A DNA stretch of 64,000 nucleotides from Flavipsychrobacter sp. (GTDB taxonomy: Bacteria > Bacteroidota > Bacteroidia > Chitinophagales > Chitinophagaceae). Positions 10,802 to 23,188 of the stretch are shown here, piece by piece. The notes beneath the pieces are model-generated. The model was given only the letters and a program-made list of their open reading frames with translations, had not been told where the DNA came from and searched no databases. The position numbers and the translations under genes were made by a program. Position 1 is the stretch's first letter. Each line of letters starts with the position of its first letter. The stretch spans positions 4,476 to 68,475 of the forward strand of contig JAEUVY010000127.1 in assembly GCA_016786565.1 (NCBI GenBank). The letters run 5' to 3'.

Positions 10802-11788
10802 TTATGATTGGCCCAGGTCTTCGTCGACGTGGGTCTTGAGTGCAGGCAGTTCGCGCGCTTCGCGCTTGATAACAAACACCGCTGTCTTCTTCACGCGCAC
10901 ACCACGCCCCATCTTGCGGGCATACACATCGGTGAACGATGCCCCGAAATACAGGATGATGGCCGAGTAGTAGATCCAAGACAAGAGGATGATAAGTGAT
11001 GCCGCGGCACCATAAGCCGTTATCAGTTTAGAATTAGTAAGGTAGAGCGAGATAAGGAACTTGCCCAGCAGAAAAAGCCCGCCGGTAAACGAAGCACCCA
11101 CCAGCGCGTCCTTCCAGTGTATGCGCGCATCGGGCAGCACCATGAAGATGACCCCGAACAGGAAGGTGACCACTATGAACAGCACACCTGTGTCCACACT
11201 GGTGAGCAACACAATGCTGTCGCTCGGAATGATGTCCTTAAGATACTTCATGTGCTGCAGCTTGCCGGTAAGCACATCGCCTATCACGTTCAGCAGCAGC
11301 GATGCCGTGAGCAGGAAACCGCAACCTATGATGAGCAACAACGACAGCAAACGATCGGTGACCACCTTCAGCCAGCCGCGCTTTGGCTTTGCCTTGACCG
11401 ACCACATATAGTTGATGGAGCTCTTCATCTCAGTGAAGATGCTGGTGGCACTGAACACAAACACTATGATACCTATAATACCGAACAGGGTACTGTTGTT
11501 GCTGGTGTTCATCTTGTCCAGTATGCTCTCCAACTGGTGCGCTTCCTCGGGCCCCACTATATTGGCCACCTGATCGAACACGGCATGTGTGGCGGCGTCC
11601 TTCTTCTTGTAGAAGACACCTATTATATGGATGAGCACCAGCAATAGCGGCCCAATGGCAAATATGGTATAGTAGGCCAGCGACGCGCTGAACTTGGCCA
11701 CGTGGTCTTCTTCAAACTCGTCGATGGTATCTTTTATCACCTCCCAGAAACGGCGCGCCCTGCCTATGGTCTCTTTTTGCACATCCAT
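10802..11788 (-). CDS. YihY/BrkB-family membrane protein
   Basis: 328 aa with multiple TM helices. It has the signature ..FSASLAYYTIFAIGPLLLVLI.. Confidence 0.8.
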   Translation of the reverse strand: MDVQKETIGRARRFWEVIKDTIDEFEEDHVAKFSASLAYYTIFAIGPLLLVLIHIIGVFYKKKDAATHAVFDQVANIVGPEEAHQLESILDKMNTSNNSTLFGIIGIIVFVFSATSIFTEMKSSINYMWSVKAKPKRGWLKVVTDRLLSLLLIIGCGFLLTASLLLNVIGDVLTGKLQHMKYLKDIIPSDSIVLLTSVDTGVLFIVVTFLFGVIFMVLPDARIHWKDALVGASFTGGLFLLGKFLISLYLTNSKLITAYGAAASLIILLSWIYYSAIILYFGASFTDVYARKMGRGVRVKKTAVFVIKREARELPALKTHVDEDLGQS

Positions 11789-15379: not shown

Positions 15380-15688
15380 CTACCATTTCATGTGCGGCCA
15401 CCGGCTCTGGAAGAAATAGTACGACGGCGCTTTCTGCTTCAGTGCCTGCACCTCGTCGGCATGTTCCTGCACCAGTGCCGATATGGTTGCCGGCGACAGA
15501 TAAAACTCCGCCACCAGTAGTCGCAGAATGTCTTCGTAGCATTTGTTCTTCAGATAGCCATAATAATAGTAGCGCGCCAGCAGGCATTCATTGCGCTTGT
15601 GCAGCAGGGTGTTGCTGCGGCCCTTGCGCGCGCGGGTGGTTATGGCCGGCTCGCGCATCAGTTCGTTAAAGATCCTTTGTCCTCTCAT
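15380..15688 (-). CDS. Small conserved hypothetical protein
   Basis: 102-aa ORF with plausible composition. Antisense ORFs overlap it. I can support no family. Confidence 0.45.
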   Translation of the reverse strand: MRGQRIFNELMREPAITTRARKGRSNTLLHKRNECLLARYYYYGYLKNKCYEDILRLLVAEFYLSPATISALVQEHADEVQALKQKAPSYYFFQSRWPHMKW

Positions 15689-15936: not shown

Positions 15937-16860
15937 GTGCGTTGCCGCCTCATATACCTGCTGCTGTCGCTTGTGTGTGCCACACAGGCGCGGGCGCAGT
16001 TGTGGCAGTGGCCGTCGGCCGGGGTCAATGCCGGAGTGGTGTCGGCCATCGGCAATAGGTTTCAGCGCATAGGCCTCTCGGTGCAGGCATACTATGGCTA
16101 CCGCCACGTGCAGGGCAATGCCGAGGTGCGCTGGTACCGCAACTTCCGCACCCCGGGGCCACGACTGCCCCACAACGAACTGGTGACCGCCGCTGGTATA
16201 GTATATGCCTGGGGGCCGCCACCAGTATGGAAAGATCCCTTTATCTCGGTAACGGGCAACCAGACCGGCCACCGCAACAGTGCGGGTTATTCCTACAACT
16301 ACTACTGGAACCGCATAGGCACCCGACAGCAAACAGGCATCATCTCGGTGCAGATAGACAGGTTCGGGCTCATCTCGGAGAACGACCTCTTTGCCCGCCC
16401 CACGCTCGACCGCTTCCGCACTGGCGCGGTGCTGGTGCAATACCGCTACCGCGATGTAGCCCAACTGGCGCTGAACTGCACTATGTGGACCGGCCAGATG
16501 GGCACCAACAAGATCACGGGCGATCCCTCTTTTCCACACTATGGTTACATGGACACCACCGGCGGCCGCTATACCCGCTTCTCGCACGGACTGCTGAGCG
16601 CGCAAGGCAAGGTGCACCTGGGTGCCGGGCAGGTGGCGCAGGCCAATGCCGGTATAGATGCCGAGCAGGTGCGCAACGCTTTGCAGAACCGCCTGTTTCA
16701 CGACATGGTGTTCATCCCCCGCCGCTGGCGCCAACCCAAGAACTGCCACATACCCATGCTGGACACCGCCGGCAACCCCTACCTATACCGCCCCGGCCAA
16801 CACATCAAAAAAGCCACTCCCTACTGGAATGTGTTCAACGCGCCGTTTGTGTTTTATTGA
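15937..16860 (+). CDS. Secreted hypothetical protein
   Basis: Signal peptide MRCRLIYLLLSLVCATQARAQ. Composition is Tyr/Gly/Asn-rich and beta-like, with an aromatic C-terminus (..APFVFY). The overlapping ORFs 15850-16749(-) and 16227-16991(+) have Arg/His/Pro-rich junk composition. Confidence 0.6.
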   Translation: MRCRLIYLLLSLVCATQARAQLWQWPSAGVNAGVVSAIGNRFQRIGLSVQAYYGYRHVQGNAEVRWYRNFRTPGPRLPHNELVTAAGIVYAWGPPPVWKDPFISVTGNQTGHRNSAGYSYNYYWNRIGTRQQTGIISVQIDRFGLISENDLFARPTLDRFRTGAVLVQYRYRDVAQLALNCTMWTGQMGTNKITGDPSFPHYGYMDTTGGRYTRFSHGLLSAQGKVHLGAGQVAQANAGIDAEQVRNALQNRLFHDMVFIPRRWRQPKNCHIPMLDTAGNPYLYRPGQHIKKATPYWNVFNAPFVFY

Positions 16861-16901: not shown

Positions 16902-17088
16902 ATATGTAAAGATTTCACCCAAAATCTTTACATATCCGGGGCATTTGTAAAAAATCTTTACATATCGTTTTGGGGAGGTGCGCGGGCATGATAATCGGAG
17001 ATTTTATTCTATATATTGGTCGATATGTAAAGATTTCACCCAAAATCTTTCTATATTTACACCATCTGTAAAAAATCTTTCAACATGG
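16902..17088. promoter_or_regulatory. Duplicated operator region upstream of fic: 34-bp palindrome plus downstream half-site, two copies 121 bp apart
   Basis: Copy 1: ATATGTAAAGATTT-CACCCA-AAATCTTTACATAT at 16902-16935 (perfect 14-bp arms), then TGTAAAAAATCTTTACATAT at 16946-16965. Copy 2: 17023-17056 (two mismatches in the right arm), then TGTAAAAAATCTTTCAACATGG at 17067-17088, which overlaps the fic ATG at 17085. Confidence 0.75.
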
Positions 17089-18272: not shown

Positions 18273-18313
18273 GAAACGCCAGAATGCAGTGTTATCCTGC
18301 GCTCTGGCGTTTC
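18273..18313. terminator. Hairpin between the convergent fic and RT genes
   Basis: GAAACGCCAGA-N19-TCTGGCGTTTC (11-bp perfect stem). There is no strong T-tract on either strand, so terminator function is tentative. Confidence 0.4.
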
Positions 18314-18352: not shown

Positions 18353-21300
18353 CTACAGAACCTTTTCATTGTTAATTCTCTTTAGAACATCCTCAACTAG
18401 AAAATCAGGAGGGAGCGGTTTAAAATCTCCCTTTGTGTGAGTAATTGAAAATTTCTGCCTCTGAAATTCACGCAGCGTAGTTAAATTAATTTTTGCCGTT
18501 AGAATAGCGTCATTTAAACCGCCTTTCAATTTTAATATGTCTTTTCTTGCAGATTCCACAGGTTGAGTTAATCTTGTGTCCCCGTATTGGCTTGTGTTTA
18601 CCTGTGCAACGTAAACATGCAAATCTCTTGACCCCGCTTCGACAATATTGGAAAAATACGGAGTGTCTTTGTTCCATTCAATACCTATCAGCAAATCAAT
18701 CTTTCCTTTCATCAAACTTCGATGCAACGCATTTGCCAGTTCAAAGCAATAAAATGATGAAAAATAGATATTACGCCATACAAAAATATCATACCGATAA
18801 GGAGAAGGTTTGGGAACATTATAATGATTACCCTCAATTAGTTCTTCTTCAATATGGGCATAATGATTTTTAAGCCGGAAAATGACAACTGAATCTTTAA
18901 TGCCGTTTACTTCAACAGGTAAAATAGTAACAATGAAATTAAAACAAGCTTTATCAATAGTAATATGTTCTAAACCAGTTACCGTTAACAGGTTGTTTTT
19001 CTGGGAATGTCTTACTAAACTAGATAGTAAGTTAACCGGTATGAAGAATTCCGGGAATAGTAGTATTTCAGTCCGAGCCTCTCTTGCCTGCCGTAAAATC
19101 GCTGCTAATTTTTGATACCTTTCAAATTCCAAATTGGGCGTATTCCTAACACTCCTTATGATGTTGTCTAATTTCACTTCAGTGTTGGCAAATGCTATCT
19201 TGGGTTCAGGCAATTTGTCTGACGAATTCACCCTTAGCTCTTGTATTTGCGTCGGCATTATATTGTCGTATGATACGGGATCGGTATTTCTTACATAAAA
19301 TTGATTTCTAAAGTGCTTATCTTCTAGTATATACGCTGGAATATGATTTTTATTCGCTCGTTTGTATAACTCAAATGCATCTTCTAAATAAAAGTGGTCC
19401 TTTGAAGAACTTTCCACGTTTTCCGTTCCTTCATCATCAATGGTTGATGTATTTAAAGTTAGTCCAAGAATTTTTGTGAAAGTGTATCCGTTATCTATAC
19501 GATCGACCTTTTTCCCAGCATCAGCAAGTTCGACAAATACAGTTGCCATACAGCATTCAGAAAACTTAATTGGTCTCGGTGAGTCTTCGATCAAGTTCAT
19601 ATCCAACGCATAGTGTTCTAAGTCTATGCGGAGAGAAGCAAGATTGATATTTTTCAACTTTGACTCTTTGGTATAGTTCAATAAAGGATGAACAACGTAA
19701 TGATGCCTAATCATATTAGTTTCCCTGAATCGTTTTCCCCAAAATGAGTTCGGCTTTGTTGCTGCGAACCAGCTACTTTCATACTCGCGTTCAATTTTAT
19801 TTATTTGAAATTCAAAATGTCTAGCCGCCTTTTTTGCTTTTGAGATAAATTCAGGGTTTAACGAAATTGCTATCTCGTGAGCGCAATCGAGATAGTCAAA
19901 TAAGGTAGCAAATATCTGCTTCTCCTTGACTTGTGAATTTTGAAGATTAACTGAGATTTTTTCTAATTGCCCAAAACAATGCAGATAGAATGACACATAT
20001 GCTTCCGCGTGATTGTTTACAAGAAAGAATGTAAAAATCCGCTCCCATAAGCGATAAAAATTGAGACAATTAGTCCCTCTAAAGAACTTAAGAACTTGGT
20101 CACGTTCAGAAGTAGAAATTCGCTTTTCGTGGCGCAACGCACTAAATATTTTGTTTGCCAAATAAACGGTAAGTCCGTAGCGATTCTCCTTGTAGTCTTT
20201 AAGAGTTCTAATTTTCCCTTCGGTGCCGTCATAGAGGAGATGATAGGCGCTTTCTTCGAATGTTTCTTCGTTTTCGTCTTCTTCAGGAAAATCACGAAAT
20301 TCACTCGTGCGTTCGTCCAGTTCCTTTTTGAGTTTATCGATCACAAGATTTGATTCTTCATGATCAAAATAGTACAAGAGAGACTTTTTGCTTTGACAAT
20401 AAAGAGAAGAGTAACCAGACAACTTAAATACTTTATCCGCCTTCCCCTCCTCGCAATCATCTTCATTTTTAATGTGTGTTGCCTTATTAAAGTGATCCGG
20501 GGCATCAACCAACTTGATTACAGGGTGGAAATTCGGCAATACGAATTTTTCCAATTTAGTCATGTCCTCTTTTTCGAAAGAGACCTTTTCGTTTAAATCA
20601 TCTTTATTATCATTGACCTCGCTTTTATATTCCTCGAAATCAAAACGCAGATTCTTCACCTGTTCAAGATCGTGATAGTCAAGCTGTGGATCCGCAATCA
20701 CAATTAGAATGTCGTCAACGTACCGACCATAGTAAGCGGGCTTAATTATCTGCTTTATTCGACTATCAAACTCTTTCAAATATTCGTTTGCCAACACATA
20801 TGATGACACCAAGCCTATTGGGAGTATTACCTCAGTTTTCGCACCCTTCGCATTTTCTTTAAGGTCAACATAAAAATTGTAAGGAACTTGATATTTTTGG
20901 CCAACTAACGCGGTGTATTTCTCATGTATCTTTAAAAAAATCTCCTTTAAGTTATAGTGACTGTTTAATAGGGGATTCTTCCTTTTGCCTCTGCCTTCGA
21001 ACAGCTTAGTTGTTTCTATTCTTACAGAATGGAAATAGTCTCTTATATCCAAATTCAAGAATAGAACATCCTTATCATTATCCAAAATGCTTTGCGCCGC
21101 TTTAATTGAATCATCTCGCCATTTCTTGTACTGTGCATGATATGGCTTAAACAACCCCGACCCTTGCACAATCTTTTCATGGTTCTGAGTCAATAACAGT
21201 CGATTACCCAAACAACTATCGGAGAGGTCGCCATCGAGTTCCCTACCATGTTGCATTATCCATAGAACGGATAACAGGTGAATCTCAACCGGTGCATTAA

Positions 21301-21691
21301 TAAACGCTGTTACGCGGTCAATTTCATAGTTTTTTTCGACCCTTTTATTTGTGATAAAATTATCTTCAAGATTGTTTTCATTAATCCCCTTTATATAGAA
21401 ATCAACATCAATCTGATTTATAAAATAATCAAAGAAGGAAGGATTAGAATGATATTCATTTAATCCAGAGGTAAACAGTTCCAACTTCTCATCTACAGAA
21501 AAAAGTTTGGAATCAAATATATCGGCATTGTAGGGGGCATCCTGACTAAAAAAAATTGAAGTCCAATCTTTTGTTCTATTTGTTTCAAATTCAACTAGCT
21601 TTTTTCGTAGAATAATATCGGTATTGTCATAATAAACATATGATTTTAATTTGTTGTAAGCTTCTTTAACTTGTGAAATGTCGAATGTCAT
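18353..21691 (-). CDS. Reverse transcriptase-nitrilase fusion protein (UG1/DRT type 1-like defence-associated RT)
   Basis: Residue numbers follow the 1120-aa track ORF; the ATG at 21691 (codon 9) is the likely start. RT motif A LNLDIRDYFHS (D223). Motif B-like LPIGLVSSYVLANEYL. Motif C YGRYVDDILIV (YVDD at nt 20711-20722). A long helical middle region follows. The C-terminal C-N hydrolase-like triad contexts are LLFPEFF (E889), FRLKNHY (K949) and SFYCFEL (C990, nt 18746-18748). The gene is visibly AT-rich compared with its flanks. Confidence 0.85.
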   Translation of the reverse strand: MTFDISQVKEAYNKLKSYVYYDNTDIILRKKLVEFETNRTKDWTSIFFSQDAPYNADIFDSKLFSVDEKLELFTSGLNEYHSNPSFFDYFINQIDVDFYIKGINENNLEDNFITNKRVEKNYEIDRVTAFINAPVEIHLLSVLWIMQHGRELDGDLSDSCLGNRLLLTQNHEKIVQGSGLFKPYHAQYKKWRDDSIKAAQSILDNDKDVLFLNLDIRDYFHSVRIETTKLFEGRGKRKNPLLNSHYNLKEIFLKIHEKYTALVGQKYQVPYNFYVDLKENAKGAKTEVILPIGLVSSYVLANEYLKEFDSRIKQIIKPAYYGRYVDDILIVIADPQLDYHDLEQVKNLRFDFEEYKSEVNDNKDDLNEKVSFEKEDMTKLEKFVLPNFHPVIKLVDAPDHFNKATHIKNEDDCEEGKADKVFKLSGYSSLYCQSKKSLLYYFDHEESNLVIDKLKKELDERTSEFRDFPEEDENEETFEESAYHLLYDGTEGKIRTLKDYKENRYGLTVYLANKIFSALRHEKRISTSERDQVLKFFRGTNCLNFYRLWERIFTFFLVNNHAEAYVSFYLHCFGQLEKISVNLQNSQVKEKQIFATLFDYLDCAHEIAISLNPEFISKAKKAARHFEFQINKIEREYESSWFAATKPNSFWGKRFRETNMIRHHYVVHPLLNYTKESKLKNINLASLRIDLEHYALDMNLIEDSPRPIKFSECCMATVFVELADAGKKVDRIDNGYTFTKILGLTLNTSTIDDEGTENVESSSKDHFYLEDAFELYKRANKNHIPAYILEDKHFRNQFYVRNTDPVSYDNIMPTQIQELRVNSSDKLPEPKIAFANTEVKLDNIIRSVRNTPNLEFERYQKLAAILRQAREARTEILLFPEFFIPVNLLSSLVRHSQKNNLLTVTGLEHITIDKACFNFIVTILPVEVNGIKDSVVIFRLKNHYAHIEEELIEGNHYNVPKPSPYRYDIFVWRNIYFSSFYCFELANALHRSLMKGKIDLLIGIEWNKDTPYFSNIVEAGSRDLHVYVAQVNTSQYGDTRLTQPVESARKDILKLKGGLNDAILTAKINLTTLREFQRQKFSITHTKGDFKPLPPDFLVEDVLKRINNEKVL

Positions 21692-22528
21692 GGTAATAGT
21701 TTTTAATAAAAACAATTGAATTTGTTTCCAACAAATAAATAATTATAGCCGAATTTTCCCGTAATTCCTTTTCATGCAAGTATTCCACTTACCTTCTGTC
21801 TGTTTCCGTGATATCTGATTCAGAACTATTGAAATGGCGTTTTGCCATTAGATTCGGCCGTTGGGGTGACAGATTTTACGAAGTAAGTGTAGCTTTTCTC
21901 ACGCTGGAGGTGTATTGCCGCATTCATTTCCTGATTCCTTGTCCGAATTGCTCGGGCCTTGGGGTGGTATCCGCTTGTTAGCCATGGTAGGTGATTTTAG
22001 TTAACCAAAAGTAGTTAAGTTTTCGTTTTTACATAATATAAAATGTATTTTTTTGTAAGTGTAAAGATTCAGGTGTGGCAAAACATATCACCCATGCTGT
22101 AACACTCTCACTTGCCTTATAAAAATGGCGTTAACAAAAATGGCGGAACGCAGCGGCAGCAAAATCTATGGAGGTAGATGTTCCAAAGCTGATAGTAGCG
22201 AGGGCACAGTAGCGAAAACGGCAACGATAGATATCTACATTTTGCAGCGGAGTGCAGACATTTTTTAGCCAATTTTTATACAGCCATGATCTTTTGGTTC
22301 TTTTGTATCAAGGCCCATTTGGCGCAAGTGTTTTTTACTTGTGTCTATCATTCTTGCAAGTGTTTTCCACTTGCAAACCTACCTTTCATCTTTTTTCTGT
22401 CATACCCCACAATTCGCTCTATCATAGATTTTCTTTTTGCTCTGTAGTTATGCAGGATGTAACTTGTATTGATGTTGAAAGAATTCGTGGTTCAGATTCT
22501 TATATTGCATAATAACGTTACTTCTCGG

Positions 22529-22551
22529 GCCTGTCCCGAAAGCATTCGGGA
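22529..22551. repeat. Hairpin unit GCCTGTCCCGAAAGCATTCGGGA (copy 1)
   Basis: Identical 23-mer at 22838-22860. It contains the stem TCCCGAA/TTCGGGA. Confidence 0.8.
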
Positions 22552-22560
22552 TGCGCAAAG

Positions 22561-22680
22561 GTGCGCAGGTTTTGGGAAGCAGTGGGAAGCAAATTGCGCA
22601 CCTGCTTCCCACCTTTTTATTGAGAATCAATGAAATAGATGAAAAAGGCGCAGTAACAAAAAACTGCGCAGTTTCGAAAC
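22561..22680 (+). repeat. Core repeat module, copy B1
   Basis: GTGCGCAGGTTTTGGGAAGCAGTGGGAAGCAAATTGCGCACCTGCTTCCCACCTTTTTATTGAGAATCAATGAA...AACTGCGCAG. The GGGAAGCA/TGCTTCCC hairpin plus T-tract looks terminator-like. Confidence 0.75.
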
Positions 22681-22837
22681 AAAAGAAGGGAATTCTATTT
22701 GGCGGATGTGCTAGTTCTCAGGAGATTTCTCTCTTCGCTCGCGCACTCGCTGCATTCGAAATGACGGGTACAATTGGGCAGCTTTTACTAAAACCCTCAC
22801 GGCGCTCATTCGAGGTGTCCCCCTCCTGGTTTGGAGA

Positions 22838-22860
22838 GCCTGTCCCGAAAGCATTCGGGA
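22838..22860. repeat. Hairpin unit GCCTGTCCCGAAAGCATTCGGGA (copy 2)
   Basis: Identical to 22529-22551. Confidence 0.8.
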
Positions 22861-22931
22861 GGATAGGGGTGGTTTATGGTGATTTTATTTCACGTCTCAC
22901 CCTGCGCAGAAGCCTGCCTGCCGGTAGGCAG

Positions 22932-23044
22932 GTGCGCAGGTTTTGGGAAGCAGTGAGAAGCAGTGGGAAGCAAAACTTCCCACATACCCATTGATAATCA
23001 ATGAAAACACCCCGAACTGCGCAGAACAAAAAAATTTCTCGCAA
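22932..23044 (+). repeat. Core repeat module, copy B2
   Basis: GTGCGCAGGTTTTGGGAAGCAGTGAGAAGCAGTGGGAAGCAAAACTTCCCACATACCCATTGATAATCAATGAA..AACTGCGCAGAACAAAAAAATTTCTCGCAA. The hairpin is kept (GGGAAG/CTTCCC) but with a different loop. Confidence 0.75.
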
Positions 23045-23188
23045 TCCTGACGGGAAACAGTGCGGAGGGTATAAGAAATGATGTTTGTCAGTGATGTTTC
23101 AGGGCATTAAGATTAACTTTGTTAGGTTCGCCTTGGTTGGCGGCAAGGGGTGCGCGGCACCCTTTCTGAACACACACATCACACATTA

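Follow-up and report, generated by a model that had tools for sequence, protein, structure and literature searches.

A nitrilase-fused reverse transcriptase of the UG5-large family in Flavipsychrobacter: a probable single-gene anti-phage system in a low-GC defence islet

The window analysed here, 64,000 nucleotides of the genome of Flavipsychrobacter sp. (Bacteroidota, Chitinophagaceae; assembly GCA_016786565.1, contig JAEUVY010000127.1, positions 4,476 to 68,475), encodes on its minus strand a protein in which a reverse transcriptase (RT) domain is followed by a long middle region and by a C-terminal domain of the nitrilase superfamily. Profile comparisons identify this protein as a nitrilase-fused class 3 RT of the unknown group/abortive infection (UG/Abi) assemblage and, within it, as a member of UG5-large, the family of the defence-associated reverse transcriptases (DRTs) DRT11 and DRT5L. 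We put at about 80% the probability that the gene is an intact, self-contained, horizontally acquired single-gene anti-phage system of this family.

Gene and family assignment

The RT_UG5-nitrilase model of PADLOC (PDLC03780) matches the protein with 785 bits (E = 2e-236), residues 8–1112 of the 1120-residue form described below being aligned to positions 18–897 of the 907 in the profile, and the UG5-small model follows with 361 bits in the same search. The next-best model outside UG5, Drt1a (UG1), reaches 63 bits and is aligned to residues 170–354, that is, to the RT core only. Because the first match is full-length at 785 bits and the second is confined to the RT core at 63, the protein is, by its profile scores, UG5-large and not DRT1/UG1, and the title family given to it in a first-pass annotation, DRT1/UG1, was wrong; the broad class named there, a class 3 UG/Abi defence RT, was right. 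That annotation had also listed UG1, UG5 and UG6 together as RT-nitrilase fusions, which does not hold for UG6, where the nitrilase is a separate gene (PMC9226505, PMC13436386). By the ranking of the hidden Markov model (HMM) scores, the RT lies outside the group II intron, retron and diversity-generating retroelement types, and placement of the RT domain in the UG5 clade is already implied by these scores. UG5-large proteins exceed about 1000 aa and carry an extension between RT and hydrolase; the present protein has 1112 aa, with helices (residues 431–720) and a connector (residues 721–835) in that position. The PADLOC model for stand-alone RT-associated nitrilases (RTasNitrilase) recognises residues 837–1105 (E = 2e-27, 94 bits), and no family-level model of NCBIfam matched the protein. 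The family is large, with 544 matches in an indexed search and 991 representative clusters at E ≤ 1e-30 in an exhaustive one; the conservation counts given below refer to a divergent set of 126 full-length representatives and, where so stated, to a close set of 48 homologues.

The gene lies in a single long open reading frame (ORF; 18353–21715) that opens with a TTG codon at 21715 and would from there encode 1120 aa, while an in-frame ATG at 21691, 24 nt inside the ORF, gives a product eight residues shorter (1112 aa). We regard the ATG as the likely start, because an NCBI protein ("RNA-directed DNA polymerase [Flavipsychrobacter sp.]") that is 100% identical to the window protein has a length of 1112 aa, and because 47 aligned homologues all begin at this position. 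Residues are numbered in the 1112-aa form unless stated otherwise; the 1120-aa form adds eight, the E889, K949 and C990 of the first-pass annotation being E881, K941 and C982 here. Hundreds of homologues are colinear with the ORF, which is full-length. Its architecture had been correctly described as an RT, a spacer and a C-terminal nitrilase-like domain in 1112–1120 aa, and the motifs and coordinates then given (LNLDIRDYFHS, YVDD, E889, K949, C990) all proved exact on re-examination; in the numbering in which those motifs were quoted, LNLDIRDYFHS spans residues 220–230 and LPIGLVSSYVLANEYL residues 298–313.

The composition of the gene sets it apart from its surroundings. Its GC content is 0.36 and its GC content at third codon positions (GC3) 0.35, as against a GC3 of 0.71–0.77 in the flanking host genes, and the interval from 18 to 22 kb is the GC minimum of the window; the AT-richness relative to both flanks, originally noted by eye, is thus confirmed by computation.

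Reverse transcriptase domain and middle region

RVT_1, expected from the first-pass reading of the RT motifs, is the sole Pfam family recognised in the protein, with 34.9 bits against a cut-off of 29.6. The residues D215, Y324, D326 and D327 are present in 126 of the 126 divergent representatives. Replacement of the equivalent DD motif by AA abolishes defence by DRT11 (PMC13436386), as does the double substitution D324N/D325N in DRT1 (PMC13275509). A full-length AF2 (AlphaFold 2) model built from 48 homologues has a predicted local distance difference test score (pLDDT) of 80.6 and a predicted template modelling score (pTM) of 0.84. When this model was submitted to Foldseek, against a PDB copy older than the DRT1 structure 9YFD, nitrilase-superfamily enzymes ranked first, followed by RTs (G2L4, retron Ec86, DRT9 and a group II intron RT).

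The middle of the protein, previously described as a helical region of about 500 aa, comprises about 490 residues and is only in part helical. Some 290 residues (431–720) fit the description and are the counterpart of what in class 3 UG/Abi RTs is an alpha-helical repeat or extension domain (PMC9226505, PMC13275509); the rest consists of a beta-rich connector of about 115 residues and of an insertion behind the palm (residues 335–430). The insertion is rich in indels, contains not one invariant residue and includes a variable acidic loop (residues 399–419, with pLDDT below 50 at 405–416); topologically, it lies at the site of the DRT1 priming loop. The connector is longer than in DRT11 and DRT5L and is gapped in alignments with DRT11 and with the E. 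coli homologue. At this position DRT11 has a small DUF4136-like connector (PMC13436386).

Nitrilase domain

That the C-terminal domain adopts the nitrilase fold, an alpha-beta-beta-alpha sandwich, is confirmed at the level of its predicted structure. With a model of residues 819–1112 (pLDDT 86.8) as the query, all 50 listed Foldseek matches in the PDB belong to the nitrilase superfamily, with E-values down to 2.5e-12, template modelling (TM) scores of 0.50–0.71 and root-mean-square deviations of 3.6–4.2 Å. The predicted catalytic residues E881, K941 and C982 and the second glutamate, E984, are invariant in the 48 close homologues and in 126 of the 126 divergent representatives; they align with K833, C876 and E878 of DRT11, and the cysteine aligns with C1116 of DRT1. 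The segments LLFPEFF, FRLKNHY and FYCFEL align with IVLPEMF, FYDKRHL and LVCYDL of the bona fide amidase YafV (E = 0.018, weak if taken alone), and a GD-R/S motif is in register as well. The proposal of a nitrilase fold with a Glu-Lys-Cys triad in the proper order stands, the fold by the Foldseek comparison and the putative triad by its invariance and its alignment in register.

Pfam itself does not recognise the domain. CN_hydrolase (PF00795), named in the first-pass annotation as a check, reaches 11 bits (E = 0.27), short of its cut-off of 23.2, and so formally failed; among 19 relatives, 14 match below the threshold, the best with E = 3.4e-4. The domain is recognisable only by its fold and by dedicated defence HMMs, and the Pfam test fails even though the fold is clear. 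Canonical nitrilases (the P. horikoshii amidase, 6YPA/1J31; C. jejuni Cj1056c, 9WPN; mouse Nit2, 2W1V; and E. coli YafV) have the same fold and the PE, K and C-x-E motifs in common with the window protein, which differs from them in an identity of only 10–19%, in its position below the Pfam threshold and in its fusion to an RT. The defence-associated nitrilases constitute a radiation separate from the canonical enzymes (PMC9226505, PMC13436386).

One further segment of this domain is of note. Residues 1033–1059 (nt 18515–18595; TSQYGDTRLTQP...LKGGLND) are nearly invariant across the family, yet have a pLDDT below 50 in the monomer model; such low confidence would be expected if, as in other nitrilases, an oligomer interface were needed for this segment to fold.

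C-terminal tail and candidate priming site

In a three-way alignment the KPLPPDF motif of the C-terminal tail corresponds to K-H-N-P-P-G-F in DRT5L and to K1219-T-Q-P-A1223-G-F in DRT1, with K1091, P1094 and P1095 opposite K1219, P1222 and A1223 of DRT1. K1091 and P1094 are found in 126 of the 126 representatives, 108 have Pro and 18 have Ala at position 1095, and 123 have an aromatic residue at position 1097. In DRT1 the domain-swapped C-terminal tail closes the nitrilase site, and the substitutions K1219A and A1223F abolish defence (PMC13275509). Because KxxP[PA]xF is essentially invariant and aligns with the DRT1 lid at the level of sequence, we propose that the KPLPPDF tail is the counterpart of the domain-swapped active-site lid of DRT1 and that the lid mechanism may be shared.

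The priming site is a different matter. The DRT1 priming residue, S402, is part of a disordered loop some 77 residues beyond YVDD and is not conserved in other class 3 DRTs (PMC13275509). No conserved counterpart of S402 was found in the window protein and its homologues, residues 399–419 being mostly gaps family-wide with no conserved hydroxyl residue. Further along, the segment of residues 461–502 combines strong conservation with low model confidence. At S463, within an [ST]-S-E-F-R motif, 123 of the 126 representatives have Ser and the other 3 have Tyr, so that a hydroxyl is retained throughout; at position 490, 109 of them have Ser or Thr. The equivalents of both positions are hydroxyl residues in DRT11, the E. 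coli UG5-large protein, DRT5L and DRT5S. We offer as a tentative suggestion, one that may well prove wrong, that UG5 RTs prime from S463 (or S/T490) within 461–502 rather than from an S402-like site, and that the KxxP[PA]xF lid is general to class 3 RT-nitrilases. What is new in these comparisons is modest, namely the apparently universal conservation of the lid motif in UG5-large and S463 as a candidate priming residue.

Relation to characterised systems

DRT11 is the name given by Sanchez-Nieto et al. (Microbiol Spectr, July 2026) to a stand-alone UG5-large protein of Sinorhizobium meliloti (WP_040120558.1; strain RMO17, plasmid pSymA; 1005 aa), which protects against podovirus-like phages in an Abi-like manner that depends on the multiplicity of infection. 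Its defence requires the RT DD motif and the nitrilase cysteine, a transmembrane protein is dispensable, RNA-seq revealed no non-coding RNA (ncRNA), and deletion of the upstream region is tolerated (PMC13436386). Neville et al. (Nat Struct Mol Biol, June 2026), who studied class 3 DRTs, purified DRT1, DRT5S (labelled UG5S_WP_166099902.1 in the supplement) and DRT5L, all of which made DNA without added template and with RNase A present, the DNA being covalently attached to the protein. In DRT1 priming occurs at S402, the adducts drive the assembly of tetramers and filaments via the nitrilase domains, and the T4 helicase Dda is necessary for activation (PMC13275509). The first-pass statement that template, cDNA product and nitrilase substrate are unresolved is, in view of these two papers, out of date for the template and the product (PMC13275509, PMC13436386) and correct for the substrate (PMC13275509).

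The nearest characterised relative of the window protein is DRT5L (about 30% identity end to end), then DRT11 (about 21–29%), then DRT1 (local similarity only). DRT5L is colinear from end to end, with 27% identity over residues 1–712 and 38% over the nitrilase domain, and is about 30% identical (E ~1e-110) to members of the Bacteroidota clade; the two have in common the RT motifs, the E-K-C-x-E set, the equivalents of S463 and S/T490 and the KxxPPxF tail. DRT5L is about 165 aa shorter (947 aa in a sequence machine-read from the supplement, in which small errors are possible) and lacks the 335–430 insertion and part of the connector. DRT11, whose locus on pSymA is matched by tblastn on the plasmid, belongs to the same PADLOC UG5-large family and is likewise stand-alone, without a transmembrane protein; its YVDD, K833/C876/E878 and FKPxP tail align with the window protein, and its locus lies in a variable, defence-rich region. 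It is about 21% identical to the window protein globally and 29% over the tblastn segments, is encoded on an alphaproteobacterial megaplasmid rather than a Bacteroidota chromosome, and differs in the sequence of the 483–502 loop. DRT1 (UG1; cryo-EM structure 9YFD; PMC13275509) has the same succession of class 3 RT, helical repeats and nitrilase, its two domains are both matched by the profile, and K1219, A1223 and F1225 align with K1091, P1095 and F1097; it has 1229 aa and a CYD motif at the cysteine, where the window protein has CFE. The clade of the window protein is set apart from DRT5L, DRT11 and DRT1 by a host from the Bacteroidota, an insertion of some 95 aa behind the palm, the longer connector and the absence of a partner gene, and these differences are variations within a known family that PADLOC models over its full length.

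Two observations were made on more distant members. In a relative from an Ignavibacteriaceae metagenome-assembled genome, the RT-nitrilase frame runs about 100 codons past the usual C-terminus (~11204–11513), which may reflect an extended C-terminus, a fusion or a sequencing error. On a plasmid of E. coli MS 69-1 (NZ_CP146678.1, 627–6658), the UG5-large homologue adjoins an AbiEii/AbiEi toxin-antitoxin (TA) pair, the type of neighbour also seen with DRT11 on pSymA, and the 156-aa ORF downstream of it has no transmembrane segment on the Kyte-Doolittle scale and no PADLOC match.

Proposed mechanism

By analogy with DRT5L, the RT of the window protein would build short, semirandom single-stranded DNA from dNTPs without an RNA template, with a hydroxyl side chain of its own as the primer, so that the DNA would remain covalently attached; neither an ncRNA nor a partner protein would be needed. 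The next steps, up to the phage trigger, are modelled on DRT1 only. The DNA adduct would drive oligomerisation of the nitrilase domains, and the KPLPPDF tail of a neighbouring protomer would close over the Glu-Lys-Cys-Glu site, keeping the nitrilase dormant until a cue from the replication stage of the phage (in DRT1, a single-stranded DNA helicase together with other factors) lifted the inhibition. In nitrilase-family enzymes the oligomer is the catalytically competent state. The nitrilase would then hydrolyse an essential metabolite bearing an amide or nitrile, or make a toxin, and the infected cell would stop before the release of phage progeny, that is, by abortive infection. Dependence of defence on both active sites, and an Abi-like phenotype, would be expected here by analogy with DRT11.

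Points against and alternative readings

Several points weigh against the conclusion that the gene is an anti-phage system acting in this way. The functional data all come from other proteins, which are 21–30% identical overall to the window protein and none of which is from the Bacteroidota clade; it is for DRT1 (UG1) only, and for no UG5 protein, that filaments, closure of the lid and triggering by Dda have been shown, and S402 of DRT1 is not conserved in UG5. The insertion at 335–430 and the longer connector are clade-specific features that go beyond the characterised homologues. For the effector domain, the CN_hydrolase score is below threshold, the profile alignment with YafV is statistically weak, and the juxtaposition of E881, K941 and C982 is predicted from alignment rather than from distances in three dimensions. 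Finally, the UG5-large protein of E. coli E101 reportedly needs the protein encoded downstream (PMC9226505), so that dependence on a partner varies within the family.

This last point bears on the possibility that the RT-nitrilase requires a second component, either as one half of an obligate pair with the neighbouring Fic gene of the SoFic type or together with another partner such as the transmembrane protein of canonical UG5-large loci. The two genes of the window are convergent, 173 bp apart in a common low-GC islet and separated by a hairpin, an arrangement which, with the E101 precedent, speaks for such a dependence. However, among 24 related RT loci, mostly from Bacteroidota, a Fic homologue is found in none and no neighbouring gene of any kind is conserved; in several of them other genes lie 15–50 bp from either end of the RT gene. 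In the closest relative (80% protein identity) the similarity at the DNA level covers 18360–21716 only, that is, the coding sequence (CDS) and about 25 nt. The ORF list and the scan of the neighbours confirm that no partner gene is present on the strand of the RT, as had been remarked before, and hydropathy analysis of all adjacent ORFs of at least 35 aa detected none resembling a transmembrane protein beside the RT on either strand; a tblastn search gave no match for the ORF that lies downstream of the UG5-large gene on the E. coli plasmid. The downstream transmembrane protein (clusters 85/1858) accompanies just 31 of 299 UG5 members (PMC9226505) and is not required for DRT11 (PMC13436386), and its absence does not exclude membership in UG5-large. 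The SoFic gene, with a GC content of 0.48 (GC3 0.57), differs in composition from the RT gene, which suggests separate origins; its GC content is intermediate between those of the RT gene and the host genes. Because no Fic gene occurs in the related loci and the GC3 values differ, the two genes are best seen as independent tenants, with SoFic, on these sequence comparisons, an independent single-gene defence candidate and not a partner of the RT; we consider an obligate partner very unlikely.

It is equally improbable that the gene is a relic, in decay or without a role in defence, such as a metabolic nitrilase fusion or an inactive retroelement remnant. Such a reading could account for the foreign composition of a gene known here from its sequence alone and for a nitrilase domain below the Pfam threshold. 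It is contradicted by the full-length, colinear ORF and the intact catalytic residues of both the RT and the nitrilase, by the absence of group II intron or retron RNA in an Rfam search, and by the embedding of its relatives in defence islands: 7 of 10 neighbours sampled at related loci are defence genes (LmuB-like, GmrSD, ThsB of Thoeris, DrmA of DISARM, prokaryotic Argonaute, SIR2-like DUF4917/PDC-S21, and PDC-S33).

Slimmer still are the chances that the gene is a DRT1 (UG1) system with a mode of action identical to that of DRT1, priming from the DRT1 serine included. The class 3 architecture and the C-terminal lid motif are common to both, the profile matches 9yfd, the solved structure of DRT1, in its RT region as well as its nitrilase region (E = 1e-21), and in the nitrilase phylogeny UG1 is nested within the UG5 radiation (PMC13436386). 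Against this stand the disparity of the Drt1a and UG5-nitrilase scores, the former confined to residues 170–354 where a UG1 protein would be matched over its full length; a size of 1112 aa as compared with 1200–1300 aa for UG1 (PMC9226505); the indel-rich, unconserved counterpart of the S402 loop; and the separation of UG1 and UG5 in the RT phylogeny (PMC9226505).

Least probable of all, to the point of being hardly tenable, is that the RT copies a dedicated ncRNA from the ORF-poor 1.4 kb upstream of it (21692–23149), as class 2 DRTs (DRT2, DRT3, DRT9) do: an unusually long gap, with no credible ORF in it, separates the RT start from the next gene, the first 0.8 kb of this gap has a low GC content like that of the RT gene, and the region contains local repeats and hairpins, but the upstream region has no Rfam match at either the gathering threshold or E ≤ 1, its folding energy is not distinguishable from that of shuffled sequences on either strand (z = -1.6 to -1.7), in the relative with 80% identity the homology extends no further than 25 nt upstream of the ATG, the 24 related loci share no conserved flanking non-coding element, many relatives have another gene within 15–50 bp on either side, DRT11 showed no ncRNA in RNA-seq and tolerates upstream deletion (PMC13436386), and DRT5L polymerises template-free despite RNase A (PMC13275509). 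By these comparisons the AT-rich stretch 21692–22500 is not a conserved component of the system.

Genomic neighbourhood

The features of the stand-alone UG5-large gene and of its immediate surroundings are collected in Table 1.

Table 1. Coordinates of the RT-nitrilase gene, its domains and residues, and adjacent elements (nt positions in the window)
Feature	Position	Strand	Description and basis
Complete CDS, UG5-large RT-nitrilase fusion	18353..21691	-	1112 aa and TAG stop (18353-18355); ORF list, NCBI identity, PADLOC
N-terminal region and RT fingers/palm, aa 1-345	20657..21691	-	Motif A D215 (nt 21047-21049), motif B LPIGLVSS, motif C YVDD
YVDD polymerase catalytic motif, aa 324-327	20711..20722	-	Invariant in homologue alignments
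Post-palm insertion, aa 335-430	20402..20689	-	Found in the Bacteroidota clade only; alignments show it to be missing from DRT11, E. coli UG5-large and DRT5L
Mainly alpha-helical region, aa 431-720	19532..20401	-	AF2 secondary structure
Conserved low-confidence segment, aa 461-502	20186..20311	-	RTSEFRDFP...YDGTEGKIRTLKDYKE; pLDDT 37-58, strongly conserved
S463	20303-20305	-	Candidate priming residue
T490	20222-20224	-	Alternative candidate priming residue
Beta-rich connector domain, aa 721-835	19187..19531	-	Strands E729-836 in the model; between helices and nitrilase
Nitrilase-superfamily (CN-hydrolase fold) effector domain, aa 836-1085	18437..19186	-	Fold search and alignments
E881	19049-19051	-	Predicted catalytic Glu
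K941	18869-18871	-	Predicted catalytic Lys
C982	18746-18748	-	Predicted catalytic Cys
E984	18740-18742	-	Second Glu (C-F-E)
Conserved C-terminal tail, aa 1086-1112	18356..18436	-	Motif K1091-P-L-P1094-P1095-D-F1097, nt 18401-18421
SoFic-type Fic gene, 364 aa	17085..18179	+	Pfam Fic_N + Fic + SoFic-like_C
Strong hairpin separating the convergent SoFic and RT genes (gap of 173 bp)	18273..18313		Inverted repeat
AT-rich stretch upstream of RT, no credible ORF	21692..22500		GC 0.38; holds the RT promoter region

Together with the SoFic gene, the RT-nitrilase gene makes up a low-GC, two-gene defence islet of about 5.6 kb (~16.9–22.5 kb). SoFic is recognised by the corresponding PADLOC model with E = 3e-107 over profile positions 9–359 of 361, and its translation displays the motif HPFSDGNGRTGR (consensus HPFxDGNGRxxR). 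A 98-nt stretch of the gap between the two genes, with the hairpin, folds at -38.2 kcal/mol (z = -6.3 relative to shuffles), and the hairpin is probably a transcription terminator shared by both. The placement of the gene "among toxin-antitoxin and Fic genes" in the first-pass annotation is only partly right: the Fic gene is there and is of the SoFic type, and the ORFs scanned within about 6 kb yielded no TA pair, the neighbourhood being a two-gene defence islet and not a TA block. The larger ORFs scanned include no integrase or transposase and the window has no tRNA gene; the other large genes scanned are housekeeping genes, cargo of the type IX secretion system, or without a family match.

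Directly to the left of the islet, a gene on the plus strand (15937–16860) encodes a 307-aa Ntox23 (bacterial toxin 23) protein with a host-like GC content of 0.61, for which no cognate immunity gene was identified; a 102-aa ORF beside it on the minus strand (15380–15688) has no family match. Between this gene and SoFic, a 58-nt element occurs twice (16902–16959 and 17023–17080), the copies being 84% identical at a spacing of 121 bp. Both contain a perfect 14-bp palindrome (ATATGTAAAGATTT/AAATCTTTACATAT), and the second stops 5 nt short of the start codon of SoFic; the element could be an operator or a boundary of the islet. On the other side, a partly duplicated intergenic unit (22529–22635 and 22838–23006) contains the perfect hairpin TCCCGAA-TGCT-TTCGGGA, a GGGAAGCAGTG-type repeat and a ATTGAnAATCAATGAAA motif, with an insertion of 62 bp in the second copy. 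It overlaps a 147-aa ORF (22551–22994) that lacks Pfam and PADLOC matches and is probably not a gene. An origin of these flanking repeats from dispersed repeats or miniature inverted-repeat transposable elements was considered and rejected, each repeat being local and present only twice in the window. The 0.8 kb at 21692–22500 is not conserved in the closest relative and may derive from a decayed gene of the islet. Far from the islet, between 40000 and 64000, the GC skew in 2-kb windows is sustained at -0.16 to -0.29 throughout some 24 kb, a much stronger skew than that of the first 40 kb, and most large ORFs of this part are on the minus strand.

Implications

The window adds an intact representative from the Chitinophagaceae, and thus from the Bacteroidota, to a family whose tested members are from Proteobacteria or of unstated origin. 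Apart from the suggestion concerning S463, this locus gives no better access to the substrate of the nitrilase, to the trigger or to the priming site of UG5 than DRT1 or DRT11 do. The clade presents itself as a strictly single-gene module that moves between defence islands and has kept the lid motif that is essential in DRT1. If the tentative proposal on priming and on the generality of the lid is true, the Bacteroidota clade with its post-palm insertion would provide a second structural model in which a self-made DNA adduct gates a nitrilase effector.

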